From Acidimicrobiales bacterium (GTDB taxonomy: Bacteria > Actinomycetota > Acidimicrobiia > Acidimicrobiales > Bin134): a DNA stretch of 64,000 bases. Made by a program: the position numbers and the translations under genes. The notes beneath the pieces are model-generated. The model ran no database searches, was not told where the DNA came from, and saw only the letters and a program-made list of their open reading frames with translations. The DNA is taken from positions 2,765,103 to 2,829,102 of the forward strand of contig OY760141.1 of NCBI GenBank assembly GCA_963663255.1, written 5' to 3'. Positions 828 to 15,700 of this stretch are shown here, piece by piece (position 1 is the first letter of the stretch; each line of letters starts with the position of its first letter).

Positions 828-1183
828 CCCACCGCCAGTGTCTCCTCAAACGACTCCTGGGGCTCAGCTGTTACGGCGGAAGCGCTCAATTCGTCTGCTG
901 CCTGCGTCATGATCCGCTGAAGAAAGTCGAGCGCCTCTCGCACCGAGCCATCGGCGTCAAGCCGGACATACCGATAACGGCCCACTTTGCGCTCCTGAAC
1001 CACGCCGGATGTGCGGAGAACCCGCAGATGCGACGAGACCGTCGTCCTCCCGACCGAATCAATCCGCTCCGTGATCTCCGACACGGTGCACTCCCCGTGG
1101 TCGCTCAATATCGCCAGGATTTGCCGACGGACTCCGTCCGACAGGGCATCGAAGGCGAGACTCTCAGTTGATGGGCGCACCAT
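824..1183 (-). CDS. ArsR/SmtB-family winged-helix transcriptional regulator
   Basis: 119 aa; LSDGVRRQILAILSDHGECTVSEITERIDSVGRTTVSSHLRVLRTSGVVQERKVGRYRYVRL matches the ArsR HTH core. Confidence 0.85.
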   Translation of the reverse strand: MVRPSTESLAFDALSDGVRRQILAILSDHGECTVSEITERIDSVGRTTVSSHLRVLRTSGVVQERKVGRYRYVRLDADGSVREALDFLQRIMTQAADELSASAVTAEPQESFEETLAVG

Positions 1184-1251
1184 GAGATCCTACCCCTCGA
1201 CCTATCTCTCCAGGCACATCACTGTGCTACAGCAAACCACGGGCAACCTCC

Positions 1252-2286
1252 TCACTTGACCAGATTCTGCATGCGTCCTCGATCGATTGTGACCAGCACG
1301 GCGAGGATCACGACGAGGCCTCTGAGGATGTCCTGGGTAAAGATCGACACGCCGGTGACGTTCAGCCCATTGCTCAGCACCGTCAAAAGCGCGACCCCCA
1401 GAAGCGTCCGGGGCATGCCGCCCACTCCCCCGGTGAGCGCCGTGCCCCCGATCACGATGGCGGCGATCGAGTCGAGGAGGTATTGGTTGCCCAGGCTCGG
1501 GGTGGCCGATCCTAGCTGGAGAAGCAGGATCGCTCCGCCAAAGCCGGCCGTGGCCCCAGACACGACGAACGCCATCGTCTTGTACCGTCGCACGGGCACC
1601 CCGCTCAACCCGGCCACGGGCTCGCCCGCGCCGATGGCCACCAGATACCGCCCGAATCGGGTGTAGCGGTTGATGAACACCAGCAACACCCAAACGATGA
1701 TGGCAGCCAGGAAGGTGTTGGGAACATCTGGTATCAACTCGCCCCGGGCCAACCACTCGAAGGGCAGCTCATCGACGAAGACGGCCCTTCCCGACAAGAT
1801 GTGCAGGGTGATCCCGGTGAAGATGGAAAGCGTTCCCAAAGTCACGATGAACGATGGGAGCCTCAGCAAGATCGAGCAGAACGCATTGACGCCGCCGAGG
1901 GCCATCCCAATGAAGATGGTGAGGATGAACCCCGCCGTTCCCAGTCCATGATCGGAGATCAAAACGGCAGCCGCGGCGGCGGAGAGGGCCGCGATCGCAC
2001 CCACGGACAGGTCGATCGATCCCATCAGTACGACCAGCGTTGCTCCCAACGAGATCATCAACAGCGGTCCGGCCTGGGTGAGCATCACGTTGAGATTGGT
2101 GATGGAGATAAAGCGCGATTCGAAGGCGGTGAACAGCCCGATTAGCACCGGCAGCACCAGCACGGGTACCAGCGGTCGCCCCCATCGCTGGATGAACTCC
2201 ATCACGTCGAGCATGACGGCGGCAGGCCGGGTAGCGTCCTCCCCGGCACTGGATGGCTCGGTGTCGAGGGTCTCGTTGTCTGCCAT
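1252..2286 (-). CDS. Sugar ABC transporter permease (RbsC/AraH, BPD_transp_2 family)
   Basis: 344 aa, multi-TM. Motifs: GSIDLSVGAI, RFGRYLVAIGAGEPVAGLSGVPV, IAAIVIGGTALTGGVGG. Lies 11 nt downstream of the dual-NBD ATPase gene. Confidence 0.85.
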   Translation of the reverse strand: MADNETLDTEPSSAGEDATRPAAVMLDVMEFIQRWGRPLVPVLVLPVLIGLFTAFESRFISITNLNVMLTQAGPLLMISLGATLVVLMGSIDLSVGAIAALSAAAAAVLISDHGLGTAGFILTIFIGMALGGVNAFCSILLRLPSFIVTLGTLSIFTGITLHILSGRAVFVDELPFEWLARGELIPDVPNTFLAAIIVWVLLVFINRYTRFGRYLVAIGAGEPVAGLSGVPVRRYKTMAFVVSGATAGFGGAILLLQLGSATPSLGNQYLLDSIAAIVIGGTALTGGVGGMPRTLLGVALLTVLSNGLNVTGVSIFTQDILRGLVVILAVLVTIDRGRMQNLVK

Positions 2287-2297
2287 CGGTGTCTTCC

Positions 2298-3857
2298 TTA
2301 TGTCATGAGCCCGATGACGTAGGCCTCATCGGGCTTGTTGTCACGTGATGCGTCGATGGTCTCCACCAAGCGGCCACTCCTCATGACGAGGATGCGATCG
2401 CTCAAACCGATCAGCTCGGGCAAGTCGTCGCTAACGATGATGATGCCGGCGTGGGTCTCGGCCAGGTCGCGCAAGATGCCGTAGATCTCTCCCTTGGCGC
2501 CCACGTCCACGCCGGCGGTGGGGTTCTCAAGGATGAGTACCCCCGGCTCTCGTCGGATCCACTTGGCCAGCGCCACTTTCTGCTGGTTGCCGCCGCTTAC
2601 TTGCGAGATCTTCTGGCCGTCGGTTGCCCTGATATCGAACTTGCGGATGGCGACCTCAGTCTCGCTTCGCTCTAAGCGGTTCTTCCAGATGCCTCCCCAG
2701 TGCACGAATCCGTATTCATCACGGTCACCGCTGGGCAGCGAGAGGTTGAACCTCACAGAATCGGTCTGGATGAGGCTGTCGGTGTGGCGATCGGGAGACA
2801 GGTAGCCCAGTCCCTTGCGCTTCATCCGCACGGTGGACGCGCGGGGCACAGCGGTATCAAGGAGGGTCACCTGGCCTTCATCCATGCGGTCGGCGCCGGC
2901 CAAGCTGCGAGCTAGTGACGACTTCCCGGAGCCCAGGAGGCCGGCAATGCCCAGAATCTCGCCTTGGCGCAGATCGAAGGTGACGTCTCGGAACAGGAAT
3001 TTCTGCGCGTCGGCCCGGTTGTACTGCGCCCGATCGCGGCAGCTGGCGCTGCGCACCGACAGCACAATGCGTTCTCGCAGTCCGCTGCCCTGGCGGTCCT
3101 CGGCGTGGAAGTCGGCATGGCGGACTCGACCGACCATGAATTCGTGCAGCGTGGCCTCGTCGGTGTCGGTGGCGGTGGTCTGCGCCACTTTCTCGCCGTC
3201 TTTGAGCACCACGATGTCCTGGCAGACCTCGAGCACTTCCTTCAGCCGGTGGGAGACAAACGCCACTCCAAGTCCGCGGGTGGCCAACTCGGTGACGAGG
3301 CCGAGCAGGTGGGGCACCTCCTCATGGCTAAGCGCGGCAGTGGGCTCATCGAAGAGCACGAAGGTGCGTGGCAGGCCGAGAACGTCGGGCACGGCAGTGG
3401 CTTTCACTGCTTCGGCGGCTTGGCGAATCGAATAGTTGAACTCGCTGGTGAGGCGGGTGACGTCCACATGGATGCCGAACTCGTCCACGACCCGCTGGGC
3501 TTCTCGGATCATGCGGGTGCGACTCAAGATTCCCCGATTGGTAAACGCGATCTCATGGCCCAAGAAGAGGTTCTCGTAGAGCGGGATGCCTGCGATCAGC
3601 GCCGGCTCCTGGAACACCCGCCAGATGCCCAGCGTGTTGGCCGCCTTGTAGGAATGGGGATCGAACCGTTCGCCGTTGAGCTGCATCGCCCCCCTGTCCG
3701 GCCTGGTGATGCCGCAGACGATGTTCAAGAGCGTCGACTTTCCCGCACCGTTCTCGCCTACGAGGCCGGTGACCTTTCCAGGCTCAATTGACAGGGTGAC
3801 ATTGTCAAGCGCCAATTGAGCGTCGTAGCGCTTCGTGACGCCCTCGATCCGTAGCAT
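2298..3857 (-). CDS. Sugar ABC transporter ATP-binding protein with duplicated NBD (RbsA/MglA type)
   Basis: 519 aa. Walker A GENGAGKST in the first half; second half has the signature VSGGNQQK and Walker B LILENPTAGVD. Confidence 0.9.
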   Translation of the reverse strand: MLRIEGVTKRYDAQLALDNVTLSIEPGKVTGLVGENGAGKSTLLNIVCGITRPDRGAMQLNGERFDPHSYKAANTLGIWRVFQEPALIAGIPLYENLFLGHEIAFTNRGILSRTRMIREAQRVVDEFGIHVDVTRLTSEFNYSIRQAAEAVKATAVPDVLGLPRTFVLFDEPTAALSHEEVPHLLGLVTELATRGLGVAFVSHRLKEVLEVCQDIVVLKDGEKVAQTTATDTDEATLHEFMVGRVRHADFHAEDRQGSGLRERIVLSVRSASCRDRAQYNRADAQKFLFRDVTFDLRQGEILGIAGLLGSGKSSLARSLAGADRMDEGQVTLLDTAVPRASTVRMKRKGLGYLSPDRHTDSLIQTDSVRFNLSLPSGDRDEYGFVHWGGIWKNRLERSETEVAIRKFDIRATDGQKISQVSGGNQQKVALAKWIRREPGVLILENPTAGVDVGAKGEIYGILRDLAETHAGIIIVSDDLPELIGLSDRILVMRSGRLVETIDASRDNKPDEAYVIGLMT

Positions 3858-3901
3858 CGCTACGCTCTTTCCCCCCTCACCTCGGGTCGCGGAATGGTGG
3901 A

Positions 3902-3942
3902 ACCTTACGCGTGAAGCACCGACACGTCAACCATGATCGACG
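3902..3942 (-). promoter_or_regulatory. Putative sigma-70-type promoter plus overlapping inverted-repeat operator upstream of the ABC ATPase gene
   Basis: Minus-strand reading: CGTCGATCATGGTTGACG-TGTCGGTGCTTCACGCG-TAAGGT. -35 TTGACG (3930-3925), 17-nt spacer, -10 TAAGGT (3907-3902). The imperfect palindrome CGTCGAT-n4-GTTGACG (3942-3925) overlaps the -35. A near-identical copy lies at 5520-5560. Confidence 0.45.
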
Positions 3943-4002
3943 TATCGAATGGGCCGGTTCAGCCCCCAAGAGGCTGGTGAGCGGGCTGGTGAGAAGCTTG
4001 GG

Positions 4003-5421
4003 TTAGAGCTGTACTCCGGTGAAGTCGAAGTTGTCCATCTTGATCTTGTAGTGGCTTTCGTAGAGCGCATCGGTCTCTGCAATTCCCCCCGCCGCTGCGG
4101 CCTCGGACCAGTCAGAGGGGAGCTGGTAGCCCGAGGGCGGTTCGGCAATCCCCACCCAGTACTCCTCGAGGTGGATCGAAGCCAAGCTGGTCTGCGGGTC
4201 CCAGTCATCCGGGTTGTGAACCCGCGACGCGAGAATGGGATCGAACGGGAGCCGGTTCTCAGCGCCGTAGTAGCGACTGATCAGACCGTCCACATTCTCC
4301 TGTGTGACGTGAATGCCGTTGACCCACATCTGCCGCTCGATCGGACCGAACTCCACGCCTTGCAGCGTGTCGTACATGCGGGTGATCGGATGGACCGCAA
4401 AGGAGTGCGGTCCGTGGAAGTTAGTCGAGAACACCTCCCCACTCTGGATGTTCTCCAGGATGTCGGGGTTACCGTCCTGCCCACAGAACAGGACATCGTC
4501 GCCCGGGGTATAACCCAACCCTTCCGCGGCGGGAAGGACGCCGGTGAGCATGGCATCGTTCGAGCAGGCCACGCCATCGGGCTTGCCATGCCGTCCGACG
4601 AGATCCTGGAACGCCTGCTGGGCCAGCACCGGATCCCAGCTGCCGGGCAGTTCTCCGACAATACTGAGCGTGGGGAACTCATCCACGGCCTGGTGCACAC
4701 CGGCTGTGCGACGGAAGGCGAGAGACCCCCCGGGGAAGCCTGCGATATGGAAGATCTTGCCTTCGGCCGAACCCAGCCGGTTCACGATCTCCTGGCACAT
4801 GAGTTTGGTCGACCCGTAGATGTTGGGCGGGTCGTGCAGGTCCCAGAACGCGGTGTAGAACTCGTTGGTGTCCACGGGCATGAACCACGGTCCGGCAGCC
4901 CACATCTGTGAGTGGTAGGCGCCGGCCGGGGTGGCCGCCTGGTTGATCGGGCGAACCTCGGAGCCGTCAATACCCGATACCCAGATCATGTTGTGCCCGC
5001 TGCCGATGTACTGGCGAGCGAGGTTGACGGATTCCACTGGGTCGAGATTGGTGTTGCCCTCGGTGTAGGCCGAGAGGCCCAGGACCTCGACGGTCTGGCG
5101 ACCGGCGTCGGCCATGGTGCGCGTGTACTGGTTCGGCGTCAAGATGAGGTGGGCCAGTCGCCCCTCTTTGCGAGAGACAACGGCCACCGTCTGCGTGGGA
5201 GCCGCCGTAGCGGTCGCCGGAGTGCCGCCTCCGTTACCGTTGCCGCACCCGGCCAACCCGACCCCGGCGAGAGCGACGCCGACAGCCGACATTCGCAGGA
5301 CATCCCTGCGGGACATGCCGACTGTGTCGAGTTGCTCGAGAATCGGATCGATGGTGCTGTTGTCGCCGGGAGTCGGAATCGATGTGGCACGAACGGAATT
5401 GGACTTTGAAGAACCTCTCAT
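4003..5421 (-). CDS. Sugar ABC transporter substrate-binding lipoprotein (Peripla_BP_4/RbsB-like), Tat-type signal
   Basis: Start chosen at ATG 5421 (RBS GAGAGGGGAAG upstream), not the track start 5532. N-terminus has SRRDVLRM followed by lipobox LAGCG. The body carries RbsB-like strings (ACSNDAMLTGVLPAAEGLG, FCGQDGNPDILENIQSGEV). Confidence 0.75.
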   Translation of the reverse strand: MRGSSKSNSVRATSIPTPGDNSTIDPILEQLDTVGMSRRDVLRMSAVGVALAGVGLAGCGNGNGGGTPATATAAPTQTVAVVSRKEGRLAHLILTPNQYTRTMADAGRQTVEVLGLSAYTEGNTNLDPVESVNLARQYIGSGHNMIWVSGIDGSEVRPINQAATPAGAYHSQMWAAGPWFMPVDTNEFYTAFWDLHDPPNIYGSTKLMCQEIVNRLGSAEGKIFHIAGFPGGSLAFRRTAGVHQAVDEFPTLSIVGELPGSWDPVLAQQAFQDLVGRHGKPDGVACSNDAMLTGVLPAAEGLGYTPGDDVLFCGQDGNPDILENIQSGEVFSTNFHGPHSFAVHPITRMYDTLQGVEFGPIERQMWVNGIHVTQENVDGLISRYYGAENRLPFDPILASRVHNPDDWDPQTSLASIHLEEYWVGIAEPPSGYQLPSDWSEAAAAGGIAETDALYESHYKIKMDNFDFTGVQL

Positions 5422-5519
5422 GGTGGCTTCCCCTCTCTCTATTTCTCTGCCCCCCACAAGTGCCCCTGAACCACGGGTTTCCGGCGGCTCACCTGATATA
5501 GCGGACCAGATTTGGGGGA

Positions 5520-5560
5520 ACCTTACGCCCAATCTGCCAACACGTCAACAGCTATCGACG
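5520..5560 (-). promoter_or_regulatory. Second copy of the promoter/operator module, upstream of the substrate-binding protein gene
   Basis: Minus-strand reading: CGTCGATAGCTGTTGACG-TGTTGGCAGATTGGGCG-TAAGGT. -35 TTGACG (5548-5543), 17-nt spacer, -10 TAAGGT (5525-5520). Palindrome at 5560-5543. The flanking GGAACCTTACGC string is also shared with the 3902-3942 copy. Confidence 0.45.
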
Positions 5561-5717
5561 CATTATGCCTCCTCGCCTAACCCGTCGATATCCATTGACC
5601 TATCGGGCTTGCTGTGCTTGACTTGTCGCCACCGCAAAAGGCCATCGACGCAGTGCTGACGGGTCGGACTCGGTCCGGCTTGCGCAGCCCGATGATCATC
5701 GAAGGAGAGGCGAGGCT

Positions 5718-5921
5718 ATGAGCTCACCCACCACCCAAGTCTTAGGTCCTTCACCCGGTGGCCTGCTGGCGTTGGCCGAGTGGTCGCTCGTGGCCCTGGC
5801 GCTGTTCGCCGTGCACATCCTGCTGCAAGAGAACGGATTCTTGTTCTCCGACCAGATTGCCCACTATCTGCACGAGTTCGCCCACGACGCCCGGCACTCC
5901 CTCGGCGCTCCCTGTCACTAA
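5718..5921 (+). CDS. cbtB: Cobalt transporter subunit CbtB
   Basis: 67 aa, one TM helix, C-terminal HEFAHDARHSLGAPCH metal-ligand motif characteristic of CbtB. RBS GAAGGAGAGG. Confidence 0.8.
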   Translation: MSSPTTQVLGPSPGGLLALAEWSLVALALFAVHILLQENGFLFSDQIAHYLHEFAHDARHSLGAPCH

Positions 5922-5936
5922 TCGCCGCGTATAGCA

Positions 5937-6755
5937 ATGGGCGGCGAGAAATGGGCCCAGCGGCTCACCCGCGGCGCGATCGCGGGCTTCGCGGGCGGTG
6001 CCGCGTCTGCACTGATCATGTGGATCGCAGTGGAGCCCTCGATCACGCAGGCCATCAACCTAGAGAATGCCGCTGGTGCCGACCACTCGCACGGCAGCGC
6101 CGGCGCTGGCGAGAACGGCGATGGCGAACTCCTTTCGCGAACAACGCAGATGATCGGTGGGACGATCACCGCAATCGTGGTGGGCGTGTTTTTCGGAGTC
6201 ATATTCACCGTTGTCTACTACCGAATCAGGCACCGTCTGTCGGGCAGGACCGATCTCGGGCGATCATTGAGTCTGGCCGCCTTAGCGTTTGCCGTGATCG
6301 GATTGCTCCCCGCCCTGAAGGTGCCCGCCAACCCTCCGGGCGTCGGAGATCCGGGCACGGTCGACGACCGAACGCTCACCTATCTGGCGATCATCCTCTG
6401 TGGGCTATTCCTCGTTTGGGCAAGCTTCGCCGCTTCGCTAGCCGTACACCAGCGGACCGACCGCGCCGAGCTGAGGTGGATCACCGCCGCCGGGGTAGCC
6501 GTGGTCGGCGGGGCCGCGATCCTCTTATTGGCCCCAAGCGGCACCGTGGAGATCCCGGCGGCCATTCCGGCGTCGCTGGTGTGGGAATTCCGGATCGGCT
6601 CACTCGGCCAGATCGCCGGTCAGTGGCTCGGTATCGGGCTGACCTGCGGCGTCCTGGCCCACCGCAGGTCCCTGGGATTGGAGGCCCGCCCCTCACCACC
6701 CTGGACACCCGATCAAGACCCGTCGCTGACTAATTCCGCAGTGGGTGAAGACTGA
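5937..6755 (+). CDS. cbtA: Cobalt transporter subunit CbtA
   Basis: 272 aa, multi-TM, His-rich loop (ADHSHGSAG) after the first TM. Immediately downstream of cbtB. Confidence 0.75.
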   Translation: MGGEKWAQRLTRGAIAGFAGGAASALIMWIAVEPSITQAINLENAAGADHSHGSAGAGENGDGELLSRTTQMIGGTITAIVVGVFFGVIFTVVYYRIRHRLSGRTDLGRSLSLAALAFAVIGLLPALKVPANPPGVGDPGTVDDRTLTYLAIILCGLFLVWASFAASLAVHQRTDRAELRWITAAGVAVVGGAAILLLAPSGTVEIPAAIPASLVWEFRIGSLGQIAGQWLGIGLTCGVLAHRRSLGLEARPSPPWTPDQDPSLTNSAVGED

Positions 6756-6798
6756 TCGACCGGTATCATGGCGGGGCACCTTGACAAGAAGTGCACAC

Positions 6799-7187
6799 GG
6801 GGCTGATCGGTTTCGACGTTGGGACCGGGGGCTGCGCTGTGCGACCCGAGTTGCTCAGACTCGCAAAACGGGGCAACCAACTAAGCGGCAACGACCGTGA
6901 ACTTCTCGCAGCCTGATCTTTCTGGCTTAGAGAAGCACCGCGACCGGTAACGGCACGCGGGGCCGGTCCACCGCAGCCCGGCAACAGAAGCGGTGGAGAC
7001 AGTAGGGACAGACCACTGACGGCGGGAAAGACCGCTGACCCCGGGGAACAGACCCGGTGGCGGGCCCCCTAGCGGGGGCCAATCGACCCGGCGACGCAGT
7101 AGCCATCGACGCCGCACACCGGGAATGGTCGTATCACAGACAGGCACCGCCCAGCGGACGGGGGTTCGATTCCCCCCAGCTCCACTC
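6799..7187 (+). ncRNA. ssrA: tmRNA (SsrA)
   Basis: The 5' GGGGCTGATCGGTTTCGAC start (6799-6805 GGGGCTG) pairs with 3' CAGCTCC (7177-7183), giving the G3:U alanine identity pair. T-arm GGGGG-TTCGATT-CCCCC, discriminator A7184; CCA is not fully encoded. Internal tag frame 6863-6916 reads GCA AAA CGG ... CTT CTC GCA GCC TGA = (A)KRGNQLSGNDRELLAA*. The exact resume codon is not determined. Confidence 0.9.
7165..7185. repeat. Left copy of 21-bp direct repeat (putative attL) within the ssrA 3' end
   Basis: TTCGATTCCCCCCAGCTCCAC; an identical 21-mer recurs at 18023-18043. Confidence 0.75.
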
Positions 7188-7190
7188 CGA

Positions 7191-7224
7191 TTACGCTATT
7201 GAGTAATTTTACTCAATAGCGTAA
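7191..7224. repeat. Perfect AT-rich palindrome (16-bp arms, 2-nt centre) at the island's left border
   Basis: TTACGCTATTGAGTAA-tt-TTACTCAATAGCGTAA. Lies 6 nt after the left direct repeat and 10 nt upstream of a TATACT -10-like hexamer (7235-7240). Confidence 0.9.
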
Positions 7225-7231
7225 TTCAACC

Positions 7232-8503
7232 GTGTATACTGCGGATATGGCCGAATTTCGGCGTTCGCAAGTCGACACCCTCATCAGCCGACTGTCGGAG
7301 CCTCCGCAGCGGCTCATCGCTATCTTCGGCCCACGCCAGACCGGGAAGACCACCGCAGCACGCCAAGCGCTCGCGCTCACCGAACAAGGGCACCGCTACG
7401 AAGCGATCGACGCAGCTGAGCACAGCACAGAGCCATGGCCAGCCTCCTCGGAGACCGACTATGCAACTTTCGGACCTGTTCGCAGAGATGACCGGTGGCT
7501 GGTGGAGGTCTGGGAGCACAGCAGGCACCAGGCCTGGACCTCGCAGCAGGGATTCGTCTTGGTCCTCGACGAGATCCAGAAGATCGATCAGTGGTCGGAA
7601 GTGGTCAAAGGCCTCTGGGACGCCGACCGCGCCAGCGGCTGTCCCCTGCATGTGGTGATTCTCGGCTCGGCGCCGCTCTTGATGCAGGCGGGACTAAGCG
7701 AGAGTCTCGCTGGCCGGTTCGAGCCGATCCATATCACGCACTGGTCCTATCCGGAGATGGCCGACGCCTTCGGCTTCAGCCTGGACGACTATGTGTATTT
7801 CGGGGGATATCCGGGGGCTGTTCCGCTAACCGATGATCTGGAGCGTTGGAGCTCCTATATCCGCAGCGCCCTAGTCGAGCCCAACATCGAACGTGATGTC
7901 CTGTCAATGACCAGAGTCGACAAGCCTGCCCTGCTCAAGCGGCTCTTCGAAGTCGGAGCGCTCTATTCCGGCCAAATCCTGTCGTTCAACAAGATGCTCG
8001 GCCAACTGCAAGACGCAGGCAACACCACAACCTTGACGAGGTATCTCGACTTGCTTTCCCAGGCGGGGCTGCTAATAGGACTCACCAAGCACACCGAGCG
8101 TCCGGTATCAGCCAGGGCCTCGATACCAAAGCTGAATGTGCTCAACACCGCTTTGATGTCGGCCGCCTCCGGCTACTCCCTCGAACAGGCCCGAGACGAC
8201 CGCGCGTTCTGGGGCCGACTGGTCGAGAGCGCAGTTGGGGCGCACCTGGTCAACACAGCCTCGCCGAGCACCACGGTCAAGTACTGGAGAGACGGCAACC
8301 ACGAAGTGGACTTCGTCCTCCAGAGGGGCCCGCACACAGTGGGAGTCGAGGTCAAAAGCGGCCAGGCCCTGACCAGCCACAGGGGTCTCATGGAATTCGA
8401 GCGCCGGTTCCAACCCCGGGCAACCGTCATCGTCGGCGACGCTGGCGTGCCCCTCCCCGAGTTCTTGTCCGAACCCGCCGACTACTGGTTCGAGCCAACA
8501 TGA
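7232..8503 (+). CDS. AAA+ ATPase of the AAA_14 + DUF4143 (COG1373) type with C-terminal PD-(D/E)xK-like motif
   Basis: 423 aa. Walker A FGPRQTGKTT, Walker B VLVLDEIQ, SESLAGRFEPIHITHWSYPEM (family-typical), C-terminal HEVDFVLQ...VGVEVKSG. Alternative start ATG 7247. The stop overlaps the next start (ATGA 8500-8503). Confidence 0.8.
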   Translation: MYTADMAEFRRSQVDTLISRLSEPPQRLIAIFGPRQTGKTTAARQALALTEQGHRYEAIDAAEHSTEPWPASSETDYATFGPVRRDDRWLVEVWEHSRHQAWTSQQGFVLVLDEIQKIDQWSEVVKGLWDADRASGCPLHVVILGSAPLLMQAGLSESLAGRFEPIHITHWSYPEMADAFGFSLDDYVYFGGYPGAVPLTDDLERWSSYIRSALVEPNIERDVLSMTRVDKPALLKRLFEVGALYSGQILSFNKMLGQLQDAGNTTTLTRYLDLLSQAGLLIGLTKHTERPVSARASIPKLNVLNTALMSAASGYSLEQARDDRAFWGRLVESAVGAHLVNTASPSTTVKYWRDGNHEVDFVLQRGPHTVGVEVKSGQALTSHRGLMEFERRFQPRATVIVGDAGVPLPEFLSEPADYWFEPT

Positions 8504-11500
8504 CCAGCCCGGTTGCCCGCACCTGCACCGAACTGGTTGTAGATCAGGACAGTGGCCTCATCCTTACCGGGTCGCAGCCGATGAACGCATTCGATCTTAG
8601 GCGCGCATACGTGCTCCTGGGCGACGCCGGTTCTGGAAAGACAACTGAATTCAAACGGGAGGCGGAAGCACTCGGCGATGCTGCGGAACTCTTGAGCGCC
8701 CGGAATTTCATCACTCTGGATGTGGACTCCCATGCGAAGTGGCAAGAGAAGATCCTCTTTATTGACGGCCTTGACGAGATGCGGGCAGGCACATCCGATT
8801 CGCTAACACCACTAGATCAGATCCGTAATCGGCTCGACCGGCTCGGTCAACCCTGGTTCCGGATTTCATGCCGAGAGGCAGACTGGCTCGGCAACAACGA
8901 CCGCCAGAGCCTGGCCGAAGTTTCTCCCGATTCACAGATCACCGTACTGCGGCTCGACCCCCTCGATGACGATGGAATCAGAGCACTGTTGACCTCACTT
9001 GATCTCCCCGGCGATGTGGGGAAATTCATCGACCAGGCGAGACAACAAGGCCTCGGAGCCATACTGCACAACCCGCAAACACTGAAGCTGCTCGCCCAAG
9101 CAGTGGAACAGGGAGGCAAGTGGCCCGACAGCCGGCAGGAGACCTTCGAGTTGGCCTGCCAAAAGATGGCATCAGAAAGGAACGAGGACCACCTGGAGAG
9201 AGCTGATGACATTTCTGCGGATGCCGTCATGGATGCCGCCGGCTATCTGTGTGTGTTGCAGTTGTTTGCCGGCACAGAGGGGTACTCGTTGAGCCGCCTA
9301 CTCGACAGCGCCTCGTTCCCATCAGTTGAAGAGATACAGAATCCACCGACCCAACTTCCTGACAGCAGTCTGAGGCAAGCACTGTCCACCAGGCTGTTCA
9401 CCGGAGTGGTTGAGCGACGAGTCAGCCCAATCCACCGTCACATCGCCGAGTTCCTGGCCGGCCGGTACCTGGCCAAGCTGATCGAGAACGGGCTGCCCGT
9501 CGAGAGAGTCATGGCGTTGATGACCAGCCCCAGCGACCAAAAGGTTGTGACAGTCCTCCGGGGTCTGTCTGCTTGGCTAGCCGTGCACTCCCCCACCGCC
9601 CGTCGACGACTGATTGATCTTGATCCCGTCGGTGTCGGCCTGTACGGCGATATCAAGGACCTACGGCCCGACGACAAGAGACTGATCTTGGAGTCGCTGG
9701 CCGCGTTCGCCGAGCAGGGGCCCCTCTTCGGCCATGAGAGAACTGATGATCGCGGCGGTTGGCATATGGGTTCCACCGCCCAAGCATTTCGTTCCCTCGC
9801 CTCGGCCGAAATGGTTCCCGCCATCAACGAATTGATCGCCAAGCCAGTCGCCGGGTCCTGCGACAGCCGGGTTTTGGAGTTCCTCCTCGACGTGCTGTCC
9901 GTAGCTGAAGACCCAGAATTGGACTCGTTGCGCGGATTGGCATCTGACTTGGAGCCAATCGTCCGCGACCCTACCCGCCCGGAAAAGATCAAAACGCCAG
10001 CTTTGGATGCATTCCTTCGGATCGCCCCATCGGGCGAGGCTACGACGAACACACTGATTCGACTTCTTGATGACATCAAGTCTGGTGTGGTGCTCGATCC
10101 TGATGATCAGCTTCGTGGGACTCTGCTAAGGAACCTCTACCCACCTTCGCTGAGCCCTGTGGAGCTATGGCATTACGCCATGCCTCGCAATCAGCACAAC
10201 CTCTACGGCCGCTATGACAGTTTCTTGGACTACGACCTGTTGACAAGAACCTCAAGCCAACAGATAGCCGGATTGCTGGATGCCCTAGGGGACAATGACA
10301 CCGACCTGCGCACCGAACTCCGGGAGTCCATGCTCTATGACTTGCCGCTCAAACTGCTGGCCCGAGGCTTGGAGGAATGCGGGGAAGAGATCGATCTGCC
10401 CCGCCTTTATGGCTGGCTCAGCATTGTCGCTGATCCCCTCGACAGTTTTCATTGGGAAGGCCGAGACATTCGCCCTGTCCAAACATGGCTAGAGGACCAT
10501 CCCGACATCCAGGAGGCCATTTTCTTGGCTTGGCTCAGACACTGTGATCAAACCGACTCCGATTCGCTCAATTCGATTGAGTTCTGCGATGTGCTCCTGC
10601 GAAGCTCGCCTCCCTCAGACTTCGGGCTGTGGTGCCTCGAAGCAGCGGCTGAGCTCGCAGACGCTGAACCGTCTGTAGCGCAGGACCTCTTGACACAGTC
10701 CTACCGCCTGTTGCAAGGCCACAGGATCAACGAGGGCCTCTCACTAGACATCCTGCGATCCCGAACGCGTGGGCACGGCGGCCTTGAGCAGCGACTTGAA
10801 GAACTCTGCACACCACGCCCCAAACCCGAACTGAGCGAAGCTCAGCAGCGACGACATGCCCTTCTAGAAGAGCGAAGGGAAAAAGAGCGCGGACAGCAAC
10901 TGGAGCGTGAGTCAGACCTCCGGTCGCAAGTGGCCGAACTGAGAGAGAACCGATTTTTCCCTCGTGGATTGCACTCCCTAGCTCAGGTGTATTTCGGCAA
11001 GATTGGGGGAACCAGCCAGGACGCTACTCCCGACCAGCGAATTAGCGAGTTCATTGGTGGCGACCCCGATCTAGCTGAGGCGGTCATGACGGCGTTGCGG
11101 CGAGCGGTCTATCGGGACGATTTACCCGAGGCCGACGAGACGATCTCCTTGAATTTGGACTCCAAATTCTCATTCCTGGCCTTCCCTGTGTTGGCCAGCT
11201 TGGAACTGCTCTACAACGACGACCCGGCACAATTGGACGAACTCGACGACACGCTCAAGAGCAACGCCCTCGCCACCCACTACTGCGTCTCGCCTGTCTT
11301 AAACGCCTATCCCGGTCGCCCGACGCCTTGGTTCGCACGAATGCTGGAACATGACCATGAATTGGTAGTTGAAGTCCTATTCGGGTGCGCCCACTCCGCA
11401 ATGAGAGACGGAGGCGCATTCCCACCAGGCCTCAGAGATCTAGACAACATCGAACATACCCACCCCGCCCTGGCATTCGAGCTGACTACAAGGCTTCTCG

Positions 11501-12666
11501 CCTCATTCCCCGTCCGCGCTCGGCAAGCACAAATCCCTCTACTCGACCGACTGCTGGAGAAGTTGCTCAAGGCAGGCAAGCCGGAACTTGAAGAACTGGT
11601 CGAAGAAAAACTGGCCATGAAGAGCATGGACATCGCTCAGCAGATTCGGTGGCTTACGGTCGGAGCGCTGCTGTCGCCTGAGCGGCATTTGTCGGCGCTT
11701 GAAGAAAACGCCGACAAGAGCCAAACGAGGGTGCGGCATTTCGCCGGGTTCATCTGCGGTCTCTCTCGCAAGGAGTGGTTCTCCGATTCACTACTGGTCA
11801 AGAACCTATGTCCCCAAGCAGTCGCCGCGTTCATAAGGCTCATGGGAAGTTCCTTTGCCCCCATTGAGATCGTAGGCAGGGGGCCCGTGTCCGGGGGCCC
11901 CGAGCTGAGTGCTTCCTGGCGGATAGAAGACCTGATCTTGCTTCTCAGCTCCAATTCCAGCCCTGAGGCCAATAGGGCACTACGGGACCTAATCAACGAT
12001 CCCCCACTCCAACTGTGGAAAGACCAACTCAGATGGGCAGAAGAGCGACAGCGCGTACTGCTTCGCGACGCCACCTATAGCCACCCCAGCGTTGAACAGG
12101 TCCAACGCACACTCGATAACGGCTTGCCGGCCAACGCGACTGACTTGGCTGCGTTACTGAACGATCACCTCGATTACATCTCACGAGACATCCGGGGTAG
12201 CAACAGCAACATCTGGCGTCAGTTCTGGATGGATGACCGAGATAGCGAACCGAGAGAACCAAAGCACGAAGAATCCTGCCGAGATGCACTTCTTACCCTT
12301 CTGAAGGAGCGACTACCCACAGCAGTCGACTCAGCTCCGGAGCGCCGCTATGCCTCCGATACGAGAGCGGACATCTGCGTGAGCTATGGCGGGTTCAATG
12401 TACCTATTGAGATCAAGAAGGACTGCCACCGCGACCTTTGGAGCGCCCTCCAGGAGCAGCTCGTCGAGCAATACACCACCGACCCTGCAACCTCCGGGCA
12501 CGGCATATACCTCGTGCTTTGGACCGGCGGCGACGAGATCAGTCGAAGGCCGGACGGCAATCGTCCAACTACCCCTGATGAGTTGAGAGAGCTGCTGGAA
12601 GGCGATCTGACCCCGGAACAAACTGGAAAAATCTCCGTCAGGGTCCTCGACGTCACCAAACCCTAA
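8500..12666 (+). CDS. STAND/NACHT-like P-loop NTPase with long helical C-terminal region and terminal PD-(D/E)xK-like nuclease motif
   Basis: 1388 aa. Walker A LLGDAGSGKTT (nt 8620-8646) and Walker B ILFIDGLDEM (nt 8752-8778) lie within the first 95 aa. These are followed by NACHT-like VLRLDPLDDDGIRALL, then ~1100 aa with no motif I recognise. The last ~140 aa read ESCRDALLTLLKERL...RADICVSYGGFNVPIEIKKD (D1291, E1304, K1306; nt 12370-12417). Confidence 0.6.
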   Translation: MTSPVARTCTELVVDQDSGLILTGSQPMNAFDLRRAYVLLGDAGSGKTTEFKREAEALGDAAELLSARNFITLDVDSHAKWQEKILFIDGLDEMRAGTSDSLTPLDQIRNRLDRLGQPWFRISCREADWLGNNDRQSLAEVSPDSQITVLRLDPLDDDGIRALLTSLDLPGDVGKFIDQARQQGLGAILHNPQTLKLLAQAVEQGGKWPDSRQETFELACQKMASERNEDHLERADDISADAVMDAAGYLCVLQLFAGTEGYSLSRLLDSASFPSVEEIQNPPTQLPDSSLRQALSTRLFTGVVERRVSPIHRHIAEFLAGRYLAKLIENGLPVERVMALMTSPSDQKVVTVLRGLSAWLAVHSPTARRRLIDLDPVGVGLYGDIKDLRPDDKRLILESLAAFAEQGPLFGHERTDDRGGWHMGSTAQAFRSLASAEMVPAINELIAKPVAGSCDSRVLEFLLDVLSVAEDPELDSLRGLASDLEPIVRDPTRPEKIKTPALDAFLRIAPSGEATTNTLIRLLDDIKSGVVLDPDDQLRGTLLRNLYPPSLSPVELWHYAMPRNQHNLYGRYDSFLDYDLLTRTSSQQIAGLLDALGDNDTDLRTELRESMLYDLPLKLLARGLEECGEEIDLPRLYGWLSIVADPLDSFHWEGRDIRPVQTWLEDHPDIQEAIFLAWLRHCDQTDSDSLNSIEFCDVLLRSSPPSDFGLWCLEAAAELADAEPSVAQDLLTQSYRLLQGHRINEGLSLDILRSRTRGHGGLEQRLEELCTPRPKPELSEAQQRRHALLEERREKERGQQLERESDLRSQVAELRENRFFPRGLHSLAQVYFGKIGGTSQDATPDQRISEFIGGDPDLAEAVMTALRRAVYRDDLPEADETISLNLDSKFSFLAFPVLASLELLYNDDPAQLDELDDTLKSNALATHYCVSPVLNAYPGRPTPWFARMLEHDHELVVEVLFGCAHSAMRDGGAFPPGLRDLDNIEHTHPALAFELTTRLLASFPVRARQAQIPLLDRLLEKLLKAGKPELEELVEEKLAMKSMDIAQQIRWLTVGALLSPERHLSALEENADKSQTRVRHFAGFICGLSRKEWFSDSLLVKNLCPQAVAAFIRLMGSSFAPIEIVGRGPVSGGPELSASWRIEDLILLLSSNSSPEANRALRDLINDPPLQLWKDQLRWAEERQRVLLRDATYSHPSVEQVQRTLDNGLPANATDLAALLNDHLDYISRDIRGSNSNIWRQFWMDDRDSEPREPKHEESCRDALLTLLKERLPTAVDSAPERRYASDTRADICVSYGGFNVPIEIKKDCHRDLWSALQEQLVEQYTTDPATSGHGIYLVLWTGGDEISRRPDGNRPTTPDELRELLEGDLTPEQTGKISVRVLDVTKP

Positions 12667-12748: not shown

Positions 12749-15700
12749 GTGCCGGATGCCGCTCCCCCAGGAGGCGTAAGAGACCAACGCCTCTTGGAGG
12801 GGTTGTCTCGCTGCGTCTCGGTTGACCTCGAAGTGTCAAAAGTGACGGAGCGCATCCACTCTTTCGCGGGAGTGCGCCTCGACACCGAAGAGTCTTTCGT
12901 CTACCCGTCGGCGGGCCTTGACCGTCCTCAGGCGTTGGCTGAGCTGGATGCTCTCGCCGATGGCACAGACTTCCTGGTGGGCCACAACTTCATCGAATTC
13001 GATATGCGCCATTTGCAAGCCGCCAATCCTGGTTTGCGCTTGCTGGAGATGCCGGTGGTGGACACTCTTTGGCTGAATCCCCTGGCCTTTCCCCGGAACC
13101 CGTATCACCATCTCGTCAAGCACTATCAGGAGGGCCAGCTCATTACCGGGCGCAAGAACGACCCGGAGCAAGACGCAAAGATCGCTCTGGAGGTTTTCGC
13201 CGACCAACAGAAGAGTCTGCTGGAGGCACCCTCAGACTTGCTTGTCGCCTGGCACTGGCTGACTGGAGGGCAGCACGGCTCCGGTTTTGATCTGGTCTTC
13301 CGGTGTTTGCGCGGTTCGCCTAGGCCTTCGGATGTCGAGGCCTGTGAGGCGATCTACGCTCGTGTTGACGGCATCTGCTGTCGTACTCACGCGCGCCAGG
13401 CCGCTGATTCCGCTGGCGAGCATGGCTGGTCGCTTGCCTATGCGTTGGCGTGGCTGTGGGTGTCGGGGGGCAATTCGGTTATGCCGCCTTGGGTTCGGCA
13501 TCAATTTCCCGACGCCGGAAAGTTGGTGCGGCGCCTGCGTGACAGCCGGTGCGAAGACCGAGGTTGCCCTTGGTGCCAAGAGCGCCACAACGCACGCAAA
13601 GAGCTGAAGCGCCTGTTCGGCTTCGACGAATTCAGGCCGGAGCCGGCCGGCGAAGATGGGCGCCCGTTGCAGCAGGCCATCGTTGAGGCGGCGATGGGGG
13701 GCGACCATGTCTTGGGGATCTTGCCGACGGGTACGGGCAAGTCGCTGTGCTACCAGATACCGGCGCTGTCGCGATACGACAAGACCGGGGCGGTGACCGT
13801 GGTCATCTCGCCGTTGGTGGCTCTGATGGCCGACCAGGTGACCGGGCTCGAGGCCCACGGCATCACCTCCTGCGTCACTATCAACGGCTTGTTGTCGATG
13901 CCCGAGCGCTCCGAGGCGTTGGAGAAGCTGAGGCTTGGTGACGCCGCTATCGTGTTGGTCTCCCCTGAGCAGCTTCGCAGTGTTTCGTTTCGACGTTCCT
14001 TGGATCAGCGTGAGATCGGTTCCTGGGTGCTGGACGAGGCCCACTGCTTGTCAAAGTGGGGCCACGACTTCCGCCCTGATTATCGCTATGTGGGGCGCTA
14101 CATCCGCGAGCGCGCAGAAGGCGGTGTGGTGCCCCCGGTGATGTGCTTGACGGCGACGGCCAAGCCCGGGGTCAAAGAGGAGATAGTCGAGTACTTCGCC
14201 GAACAACTCGGCGTCGAGATGCGGGTGTTCGACGGAGGCAGCGAGCGCGCCAACCTCGAGTTCGTGGTGGTGGAGACAACCACTTCCAAGAAGTACAGCG
14301 ACATCTACGAGATCTTGTCCAACCATCTTCCGCCAGACGGGAACGGCGGCGCGATTGTGTACTGCGCGACTCAACGGCGGACCGAGGAGATCGCGAACTT
14401 CCTCAGGGAATTAGGGTTCTCCGCTGATCGCTTCCATGCCGGGTTGCAGCCGGAGGACAAGAAGACGGTCCAGCGCCGCTTCATCGAAGGTGAGCTGAGG
14501 GCGATTGCGGCCACCAACGCTTTTGGAATGGGCATCGACAAGCCCGATGTGCGACTGGTGATACACGCCGACATTCCATCGTCGCTGGAGAACTATCTGC
14601 AAGAGGCGGGTCGGGCCGGCCGGGACCAGAAACAGGCTCACTGTGTGCTGCTGTTCACGAGAAACGACGTGGAGCGGCAGTTCGGCATGTCGGCACGGTC
14701 CCGGCTCACTCGACGCGAGATCAATGGGGTGCTGAAGGCCCTGCGCCGGCTGAGCAGACGCAACAATAACGACGAAGTCGTTGCCACCATGGGCGAGATC
14801 CTGGTCAACGACGAAGACACCGACTTCAGGCGGGATTCTGCCACCGACGACACGCGGGGGCGCACGGCGCTGGCCTGGCTTGAGGAGGCAGAGCTGCTCA
14901 GCCGGGAGGAGAACCGCGTCAATATCTTCCCGTCGTCGTTGCGGGTGAGCTCGGTGGAGGAGGCAAAGGAGAAGCTGGAGTCCAAAGGGCTTGACGAACT
15001 GGCGCGCGGCCGGCTGCTGGCCGTCGTGGAGGCGCTGATCGGTGCCGACCCCGACGAGGGGATCTCCACCGACATGCTCATGGCCACCGCCGGCCTCAGC
15101 TCCGACCAAGTTAGGGGCGCGCTCTACGACTTGGAGAGATGCGGTATCGCCAGCAACGACACCGCGCTGACCGCCTTCGTCCACCTGGGCGTTGCCAACA
15201 GCTCGAAGCGGCGGCTGGTCGAGGCAGCGGGGGCAGAAGAGGAGCTCTTAAGCCTCATGCGGGAGATGGCCCCAGATATGGGAATCGGCGATGAGGCGCC
15301 GCTGAATCTGCGGGTTGCCTGCCAGCGGATCAAAGACGCCGGCCACAACCATGTCCGGCCCGAGTACATGGCCCGTCTTCTGCAAGGGATCGCCGGCGAC
15401 GGCCGCGGCGAGGGCATTGGAGGCGGCAGCATCACAGTGAGAAAGCTCGATGCCGAAAGCGTTCGAATAACACTGAAGCGCGAATGGCATTCCGTAGTGG
15501 GGATGGCGCAGCGTCGGCGAGCCGGCGCCGCCCGCCTCCTCGATCACCTTCTGTCATGTGCGCCGAAGGGCAAGCGCGGCACCGACCTGCTGGCGGAAAC
15601 CACCTTGGGAAAGCTGACCGAGGCCGTGGAGGGAGACTTGACTCTCGCCGGGGAGGCCAAGGACTTGCGCAGGCTGGTGGACCGCTCGCTGGTGTGGCTG

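Follow-up and report, generated by a model that had tools for sequence, protein, structure and literature searches.

Bacterial NOD-like receptor (NLR) and antiviral STAND (Avs) proteins are regarded as single-protein sensor-effectors. Among them, the Erebus system reportedly goes back to work by van den Berg and colleagues in 2024. Avs10 (Erebus/Hypnos/bNACHT64) is, according to the available text of two studies of enterobacterial representatives, a STAND family that is activated by the phage major capsid protein, causes effector-dependent cell death and protects against phages (PMC13581612, PMC12803255). The available text of Lee et al. (2026, Nature 657:735) describes binding of Avs10 to the penton- and hexon-forming interface of the capsid protein A-domain. 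PDC-S01, which combines an ATPase with a PD-(D/E)xK domain, is a very common, experimentally unvalidated single-gene candidate (PMC12988326) and reportedly ranks fourth in frequency among prokaryotic defence candidates. Here we describe a pair of overlapping genes related to Avs10 and PDC-S01 in a 64,000-nt stretch of the genome of an Acidimicrobiales bacterium (contig OY760141.1, positions 2,765,103 to 2,829,102; hereafter the window, to which all coordinates refer). With the help of comparative genomics and structural modelling, the product of the downstream gene (8500..12666, + strand), referred to as the receptor, was identified as a probable antiphage NLR nuclease of the EruA/Avs10 type, which probably forms a two-component unit with the ATPase-nuclease encoded by the coupled upstream DUF4143 gene, referred to as the partner.

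The receptor gene is one uninterrupted frame that opens with ATG and encodes 1388 amino acids (aa). It is not a chance reading frame in GC-rich DNA, because more than 3900 database proteins (a minimum count, at E-values of at most 1e-5) matched its product and the best 120 of these homologs are full-length, with 46–89% identity. The NCBIfam model NF058535 (“NACHT domain-containing antiphage protein EruA”), an equivalog model with a curated NCBI cut-off of 1000 bits, was matched with 899.7 bits (E-value 4.6e-270) in a collinear alignment of receptor residues 28–1386 with positions 18–1318 of the 1318 in the model. In the precomputed annotation, the receptor and nearly every one of the 120 best homologs carry the Pfam family PF28130 (DUF8371). 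On the basis of the NF058535 match the gene was assigned to an EruA-like (Erebus/Avs10-family, DUF8371) NACHT receptor-nuclease. Homologs collinear with the receptor are encoded on plasmids of Vibrio, Pantoea, Agrobacterium, Ralstonia, Burkholderia, and Bradyrhizobium, and two of these proteins exceed the EruA cut-off (Burkholderia ambifaria, 1326 bits; Bradyrhizobium CW1, 1190 bits). In all the plasmid homologs compared the NTPase comes first and the C-terminal E...D...ExK...Q motif is kept, and their genes adjoin Ppl, Abi, SIR2, Schlafen, and integrase genes.

The receptor thus shares with EruA/Erebus/Avs10 proteins the full-length collinearity, a NACHT module that starts no more than about 40 residues into the protein, an extended helical sensor, a C-terminal domain with the E...D...ExK...Q motif, a length of about 1300–1400 aa and a location in mobile or defence-island contexts. 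The original prediction, made from the sequence of the window, had described the layout of the protein as inverted compared with known antiviral STAND proteins. The order itself, NTPase first and nuclease last, was recovered in our analysis, but it is the architecture of the EruA/DUF8371/Avs10 family and no peculiarity of this gene, hence standard in a named and tested antiphage family rather than novel. Since the family has already been named and tested, what the architecture alone contributes is one further, distant member, found in an uncultured symbiont of sponges. What sets the window clade apart from the cut-off-passing EruA genes, which stand alone, is the coupled DUF4143 ATPase. HyoA (NF058534) is likewise a named NACHT antiphage protein, grouped in the literature with Erebus under Avs10, and shows partial similarity to receptor residues 134–1369 (E-value 2e-56); however, with 191 bits against a cut-off of 1200 the receptor is clearly no HyoA ortholog. 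The classical Avs1–5/Avs7 and bNACHT proteins (e.g., SeAvs3 and SeAvs7 with an N-terminal Cap4 nuclease) have in common with the receptor a STAND NTPase, a helical sensor, a nuclease of the PD-(D/E)xK superfamily and a presumed logic that leads from target binding via oligomerisation to nuclease activation, whereas the receptor carries its nuclease at the extreme C-terminus, past the sensor, and has no N-terminal domain.

Two further searches concerned the distribution of the family: a search of Escherichia coli genomes with the DNA of the Pantoea homolog gave no match, and the IMG/VR database, searched for carriage by phages, returned only two matches, both distant. On a plasmid of Rhodococcus qingshengii (L170) a distant EruA-like gene lies head-to-head with a gene annotated as NACHT domain-containing (1033–4293 and 4932–8921), and the DEAD/DEAH helicase gene that follows makes this another neighbourhood of NLR and helicase genes.

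The start codon of the receptor gene lies on the stop codon of the partner gene in an ATGA overlap (8500..8503, + strand; sequence ...CCAACATGACC), and a start/stop overlap of this type implies translational coupling of partner and receptor. To examine the pairing across genomes a comparison set of 83 related loci was used (given L numbers where they have to be told apart), three of which were found by exact protein and 80 by a scan of GTDB species. In 80 of the 83 loci the receptor gene is immediately preceded, in the same orientation, by a homolog of the DUF4143 partner, and 65 of these 80 pairs share an overlap of exactly 4 bp (ATGA or GTGA). The original prediction had noted the ATGA overlap, which is present in the sequence, and had suggested co-expression of the two genes; the retention of the 4-bp overlap in so many loci and phyla strongly backs this suggestion. 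The paired loci cover about ten phyla, with members in Acidimicrobiia, Chloroflexota, Latescibacterota, Acidobacteriota, Verrucomicrobiota, Gammaproteobacteria, Nitrospinota, Gemmatimonadota, Rhodothermales, and Tectimicrobiota, and are found mostly in sponge-associated metagenome-assembled genomes (MAGs; Poriferisocius, Poriferisodalis, Spongiisociaceae, Entotheonella, Latescibacterota, and others). The occurrence of the pair in about ten phyla that are nearly all represented by sponge-associated MAGs suggests horizontal spread within the sponge microbiome. In all 78 loci in which both proteins could be compared the partner is better conserved than the receptor (median identity 63% vs 41%), and the identities of the two proteins are correlated (r = 0.88).

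As an alternative, the receptor could be a self-sufficient single-gene system of the Erebus/Avs10 type and the DUF4143 ATPase an independent PDC-S01 candidate that travels alongside it in defence islands. The DUF4143 gene is absent from all seven proteobacterial and actinobacterial plasmid loci, including both that pass the EruA cut-off, three loci of the paired clade itself are without a partner, and PDC-S01 is listed among the single-gene candidates (PMC12988326), all of which would fit such independence. The reciprocal scan of metagenomes with a DUF4143 profile bears on the question from both sides: of 61 assessable loci, 20 had an EruA-like gene as the next gene downstream, and DUF4143 relatives of about 50% identity often stand alone, without a consistent downstream gene, but every assessable relative with at least 57% identity to the partner of the window is paired. 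Moreover, an exact 4-bp overlap maintained over about ten phyla is not normal for independent neighbours, nor would these be expected to keep order and strand constant in 80 of 83 loci. We therefore regard independence of the two genes as unlikely and retain the two-component unit.

Two observations on single loci are added here. One MAG of the Dehalococcoidia holds two partner-less copies of the receptor (L054 and L066). In another locus (L053, 5761–7001) the DUF4143 partner seems frameshifted, as tblastn recovered it as two pieces that lie in different frames, with an intact receptor gene beside them, and it may be pseudogenised.

The partner gene (7247..8503, + strand) was classified as an AAA_14/DUF4143 ATPase of the PDC-S01 type according to Pfam, PADLOC, and invariant motifs. 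Its open reading frame begins at a GTG at 7232 and the homologs begin at the ATG at 7247. The presence of a DUF4143 ATPase gene upstream of the receptor, as originally predicted, is borne out by Pfam matches to both AAA_14 (E-value 1.5e-18) and DUF4143 (2.3e-24). The PADLOC model PDLC04791 (PDC-S01) was matched with an E-value of 1.9e-159 over practically its full length (aa 9–420 on model positions 2–394 of 395). A PD-(D/E)xK motif is predicted at the C-terminus (E358-x-D360 ... E373-x-K375), and this ExD...ExK motif, together with Walker A (GPRQTGKT) and Walker B (LDE), is invariant in 32 homologs; a search of the PDB with the partner profile matched RecA P-loops alone. The partner therefore agrees with PDC-S01 in the full-length match and in the combination of ATPase and PD-(D/E)xK domain, and differs from it in that PDC-S01 is catalogued as a single gene while the subclade of the partner is fixed in an operon with an NLR-type receptor. 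A literature search for papers linking Erebus or Avs10 with DUF4143 or PDC-S01 retrieved none, and the conserved, translationally coupled PDC-S01-type partner appears to be an undescribed feature.

For the structural analysis of the receptor AlphaFold2 models were built on 68-sequence alignments for two fragments, aa 1–1160 and aa 1160–1388. The model of the first fragment, with a mean predicted local distance difference test (pLDDT) score of 80.9, consists of a beta-hairpin, a P-loop core at aa ~36–152 and then helices only. The N-terminal 33 residues (8500..8598, + strand) contain no effector domain; they were modelled as a short beta-hairpin (strands at residues 8–15 and 19–22) with an invariant R7-T8-C9-x-E11 motif. 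With about 35 residues ahead of the first P-loop strand, modelled as a hairpin rather than a domain, there is indeed no room for an N-terminal effector, as had been predicted, and the receptor lacks the effector N-terminal to the NTPase that is a feature of canonical tripartite STAND proteins. The N-terminal motif was also considered as a marker of the paired clade and was rejected, because a similar R-R-T-x-x-E occurs in the Bradyrhizobium protein, which stands alone and exceeds the EruA cut-off.

The NACHT-type NTPase module (aa ~34–420; 8599..9759, + strand), with a nucleotide-binding domain followed by helical and winged-helix subdomains, was delimited by Foldseek and by its motifs. Walker A (GDAGSGKT) starts at residue 41 (8620–8643) and Walker B (ILFIDGLDE) at residue 85 (8752–8778), both exactly where they had been placed by the original prediction, and a sensor-1-like ISCRE motif is found at aa 122. 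These Walker motifs are invariant across the 68-sequence alignment. The sequence agrees with the signature of the NACHT clade (GxxGxGK[ST], and hhhhDGhDE with extra acidic residues). DGLDE is said to have been recognised as a NACHT signature by Koonin and Aravind in 2000. The top Foldseek matches of aa 1–1160 in the PDB were the NLRs NLRC4 (E-value 3.6e-7), NOD2 (5.5e-7), NLRP14 (6.7e-6), and NLRP3 (3.6e-5), and ABC or RecA ATPases were not found in this search; the proposed STAND/NACHT-like identity of the NTPase is therefore upheld against an ABC- or RecA-like fold. The eukaryotic NACHT proteins NLRC4, NOD2, and NLRP3, although structurally closest to the NTPase module, have CARD or PYD N-termini, leucine-rich repeat sensors and no nuclease, and their sequence identity to the receptor is about 12%.

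The region that follows the NTPase module (aa ~421–1160; 9760..11979, + strand) was assigned to an alpha-solenoid of the HEAT/ARM/TPR type, which we presume to be the sensor. The long helical stretch that had been predicted here is seen in the model, in which residues ~160–1160 are all-alpha, and HEAT/ARM solenoids (CAND1, CRM1, importins) come after the NLRs among the Foldseek matches. Residues 421–1160 are the least conserved and fastest-evolving part of the receptor: in loci L006 and L002 the solenoid is 42–44% identical to that of the window, the nuclease domain 77–80% and the partner 86–92%. Such divergence would be expected for a sensor under diversifying pressure.

The C-terminal domain (aa ~1251–1388; 12250..12663, + strand) was predicted to be a PD-(D/E)xK nuclease from the topology of the model, from invariant residues and from the Foldseek matches. 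In the model of the second fragment (pLDDT 82.5) a helical linker leads into an alpha-beta-beta-beta-alpha-beta core (in fragment numbering, helix 98–112, strands 118–124, 130–137, and 140–148, helix 154–168, and strand 176–182). E1257 (12268–12270) is located on helix 1, D1291 (12370–12372; D132 of the fragment) opens strand 2, and E1304 (12409–12411) and K1306 (12415–12417; E145 and K147 of the fragment) lie on strand 3 as ExK, which is the canonical placement in PD-(D/E)xK nucleases; these four residues and Q1320 (12457–12459), all on the + strand, are invariant in the 68 homologs. The original prediction had proposed a PD-(D/E)xK site at this end of the protein, with a conserved glutamate on a preceding helix and with D1291, E1304, and K1306 in precisely these positions, and the canonical fold rather than a different one was modelled. 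The specific families it had suggested (Mrr, NERD, Cap4, DUF4263) were not recovered, as none of them had a match among the Pfam hidden Markov models (HMMs) in the receptor. Nearly all the top Foldseek matches of this model were PD-(D/E)xK nucleases, which dominate the top 50 and include the small subunit of R.BspD6I, SfsA, Can2, Cdn1, Hjc, Mus81, and McrC, with probabilities of up to 0.94–0.97 and TM-scores of 0.32–0.37 at a best E-value of only 1e-2. Among the PADLOC models, only that for LmuA (PDLC03853) matched here, weakly, over aa 1199–1324 (E-value 2e-5).

A phmmer search of 1.84 billion representative proteins with the C-terminal domain returned 1787 clusters. The possibility that the nuclease domain has been shuffled into other architectures was rejected, as it forms the C-terminal end of all 150 best representative proteins.

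The C-terminal domain could also serve DNA binding, oligomerisation or auto-inhibition, with the killing left to the nuclease of the partner. This would be in line with the weak E-values of the fold comparison, with the invariant ExD...ExK motif that the partner carries itself and with the available text of Lee et al. (2026), which does not state where the effector of Avs10 is located. However, none of the catalytic residues (E, D, ExK, Q) varies among the 68 homologs, and the set is also kept in the partner-less, stand-alone proteins that pass the EruA cut-off, and a purely structural role seldom preserves every catalytic residue, so that we consider a non-catalytic domain very unlikely and continue to treat the receptor as a nuclease in its own right.

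Several results weigh against the assignment as a whole. The score of the receptor is below the curated NF058535 cut-off and makes it EruA-like, not an EruA equivalog by the NCBI rule, and its identity to the cut-off-passing EruA proteins is only 23–26%; given both, its trigger could differ from the capsid protein. The equation of EruA with Erebus and of HyoA with Hypnos is our reading of the gene symbols: literature searches under EruA, HyoA, EruB, and HyoB gave nothing relevant, and the names Erebus and Hypnos lead to the Avs10 paper. The Pfam NACHT HMM (PF05729) had no match in the receptor at E-values of at most 1, and the sole Pfam match was a weak one to nSTAND_NTPase5 (E-value 0.17). 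No relative turned up in the PDB when its sequences were searched with the full-length receptor, its C-terminal fragment or the profile of the family; the Foldseek E-values of the nuclease model, none better than 1e-2, and the silence of the Avs10 text on the place of the effector point the same way. As to the partner, the one PDC-S01 gene that was assayed by itself in E. coli B did not figure among the candidates that gave protection, and the three partner-less loci within the paired clade suggest that the receptor may work alone. Taken with the evidence above, we still hold the EruA/Avs10-type receptor and its coupled partner to be a likely two-component antiphage unit.

By homology with described systems, the pair would function as follows. 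In the resting cell the receptor would be an auto-inhibited monomer. Upon infection the solenoid would bind a conserved phage protein, which for the Avs10 representatives is the HK97-fold major capsid protein. Binding would free the NACHT module for ATP binding and oligomerisation, as in Avs10 and other Avs proteins, and the oligomer would bring the C-terminal nuclease domains together so that DNA is cut and the infection aborted. Comparative genomics suggests that the partner would act jointly with the receptor as a co-effector, regulator or stabiliser. A broader proposal, for and against which we see about equal grounds, is that a large, horizontally spread Erebus/Avs10-like clade recruited a PDC-S01-type ATPase-nuclease as an obligate coupled partner, itself slow to evolve, that controls or carries out the response of a rapidly evolving sensor. 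The conserved overlapping operon suggests that certain NLRs of bacteria depend on an additional ATPase-nuclease, or that PDC-S01 is an add-on for other immune sensors; the two-component unit, if true, would provide the first functional context for PDC-S01.

The pair is situated in a small genomic island next to a transfer-messenger RNA gene (tmRNA, ssrA; 6799..7187, + strand), which was detected by ARAGORN with the tag peptide GNDRELLAA and by Rfam (RF00023, 65.8 bits, E-value 4.2e-24). A 21-nt direct repeat at the tmRNA 3' end (TTCGATTCCCCCCAGCTCCAC; 7165..7185, + strand; attL-like) recurs as an exact, 100% identical copy at 18023..18043 (+ strand; attR-like), and the 22-nt repeat pattern had no matches in 100 shuffles. 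The two copies of the tmRNA 3' end, 10.86 kb apart, indicate an island of about 10.9 kb, integrated at the tmRNA gene and made up of three defence-like genes, within which no integrase gene was found. In related loci the pair is located immediately 3' of a tmRNA (L005, L006, and L024) or near tRNA genes (L002, L007, and L011). The locus illustrates the movement of a module, with the pair in a small tmRNA island here and the same pair in many phyla of the sponge habitat.

The third gene of the island (12749..17881, + strand) encodes a protein of 1710 aa that joins two helicases, one RecQ-like (resembling DpdF and PsyrT) and one UvrD-like (resembling GajB), as determined with Pfam (DEAD, Helicase_C, UvrD-helicase, and UvrD_C) and PADLOC (DpdF, 7e-115; GajB, 1e-53). 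Since it starts 80 bp downstream of the receptor gene on the same strand, within the same repeat-bounded island, and matches the defence helicases DpdF, PsyrT, and GajB, the functional unit might comprise three genes; in L001, L005, and L006 the helicase, 86–89% identical to that of the window, adjoins the same pair. These three are, however, the only loci among the 83 in which it is intact. It is absent from about 77 of the loci and reduced to fragments in L002, L009, and L004, where the pair is intact. As it is rarely intact and has decayed elsewhere, the helicase was considered an accessory neighbour and not a core part, and a three-gene unit is in our view highly improbable, the two-gene unit of receptor and partner being preferred. 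The N-terminal extension of the helicase (~280 aa) had no Pfam match; by eye, candidate motifs of a DnaQ-like exonuclease (DLE..., HNFIEFD, H-x4-D) are discernible in it.

Between the end of the tmRNA and the ATG of the partner lie 60 bp that contain a perfect 17-nt inverted repeat (ATTACGCTATTGAGTAA / TTACTCAATAGCGTAAT; 7190..7225, no strand assigned) with 100% complementary arms and a 2-nt spacer. This repeat may be an operator, the terminator of the tmRNA or a recombination site. A scan for sigma-70-like promoters found none, which is uninformative for a genome of the actinobacterial type. Just upstream of the tmRNA an open reading frame of 317 aa (5780–6733, + strand) has no Pfam match and, in DNA as GC-rich as this, may be spurious. 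Beyond the repeats of the island ABC-transporter genes and an SDR (short-chain dehydrogenase/reductase) gene are located. The sequencing runs that contain parts of the window include sponge metagenomes.

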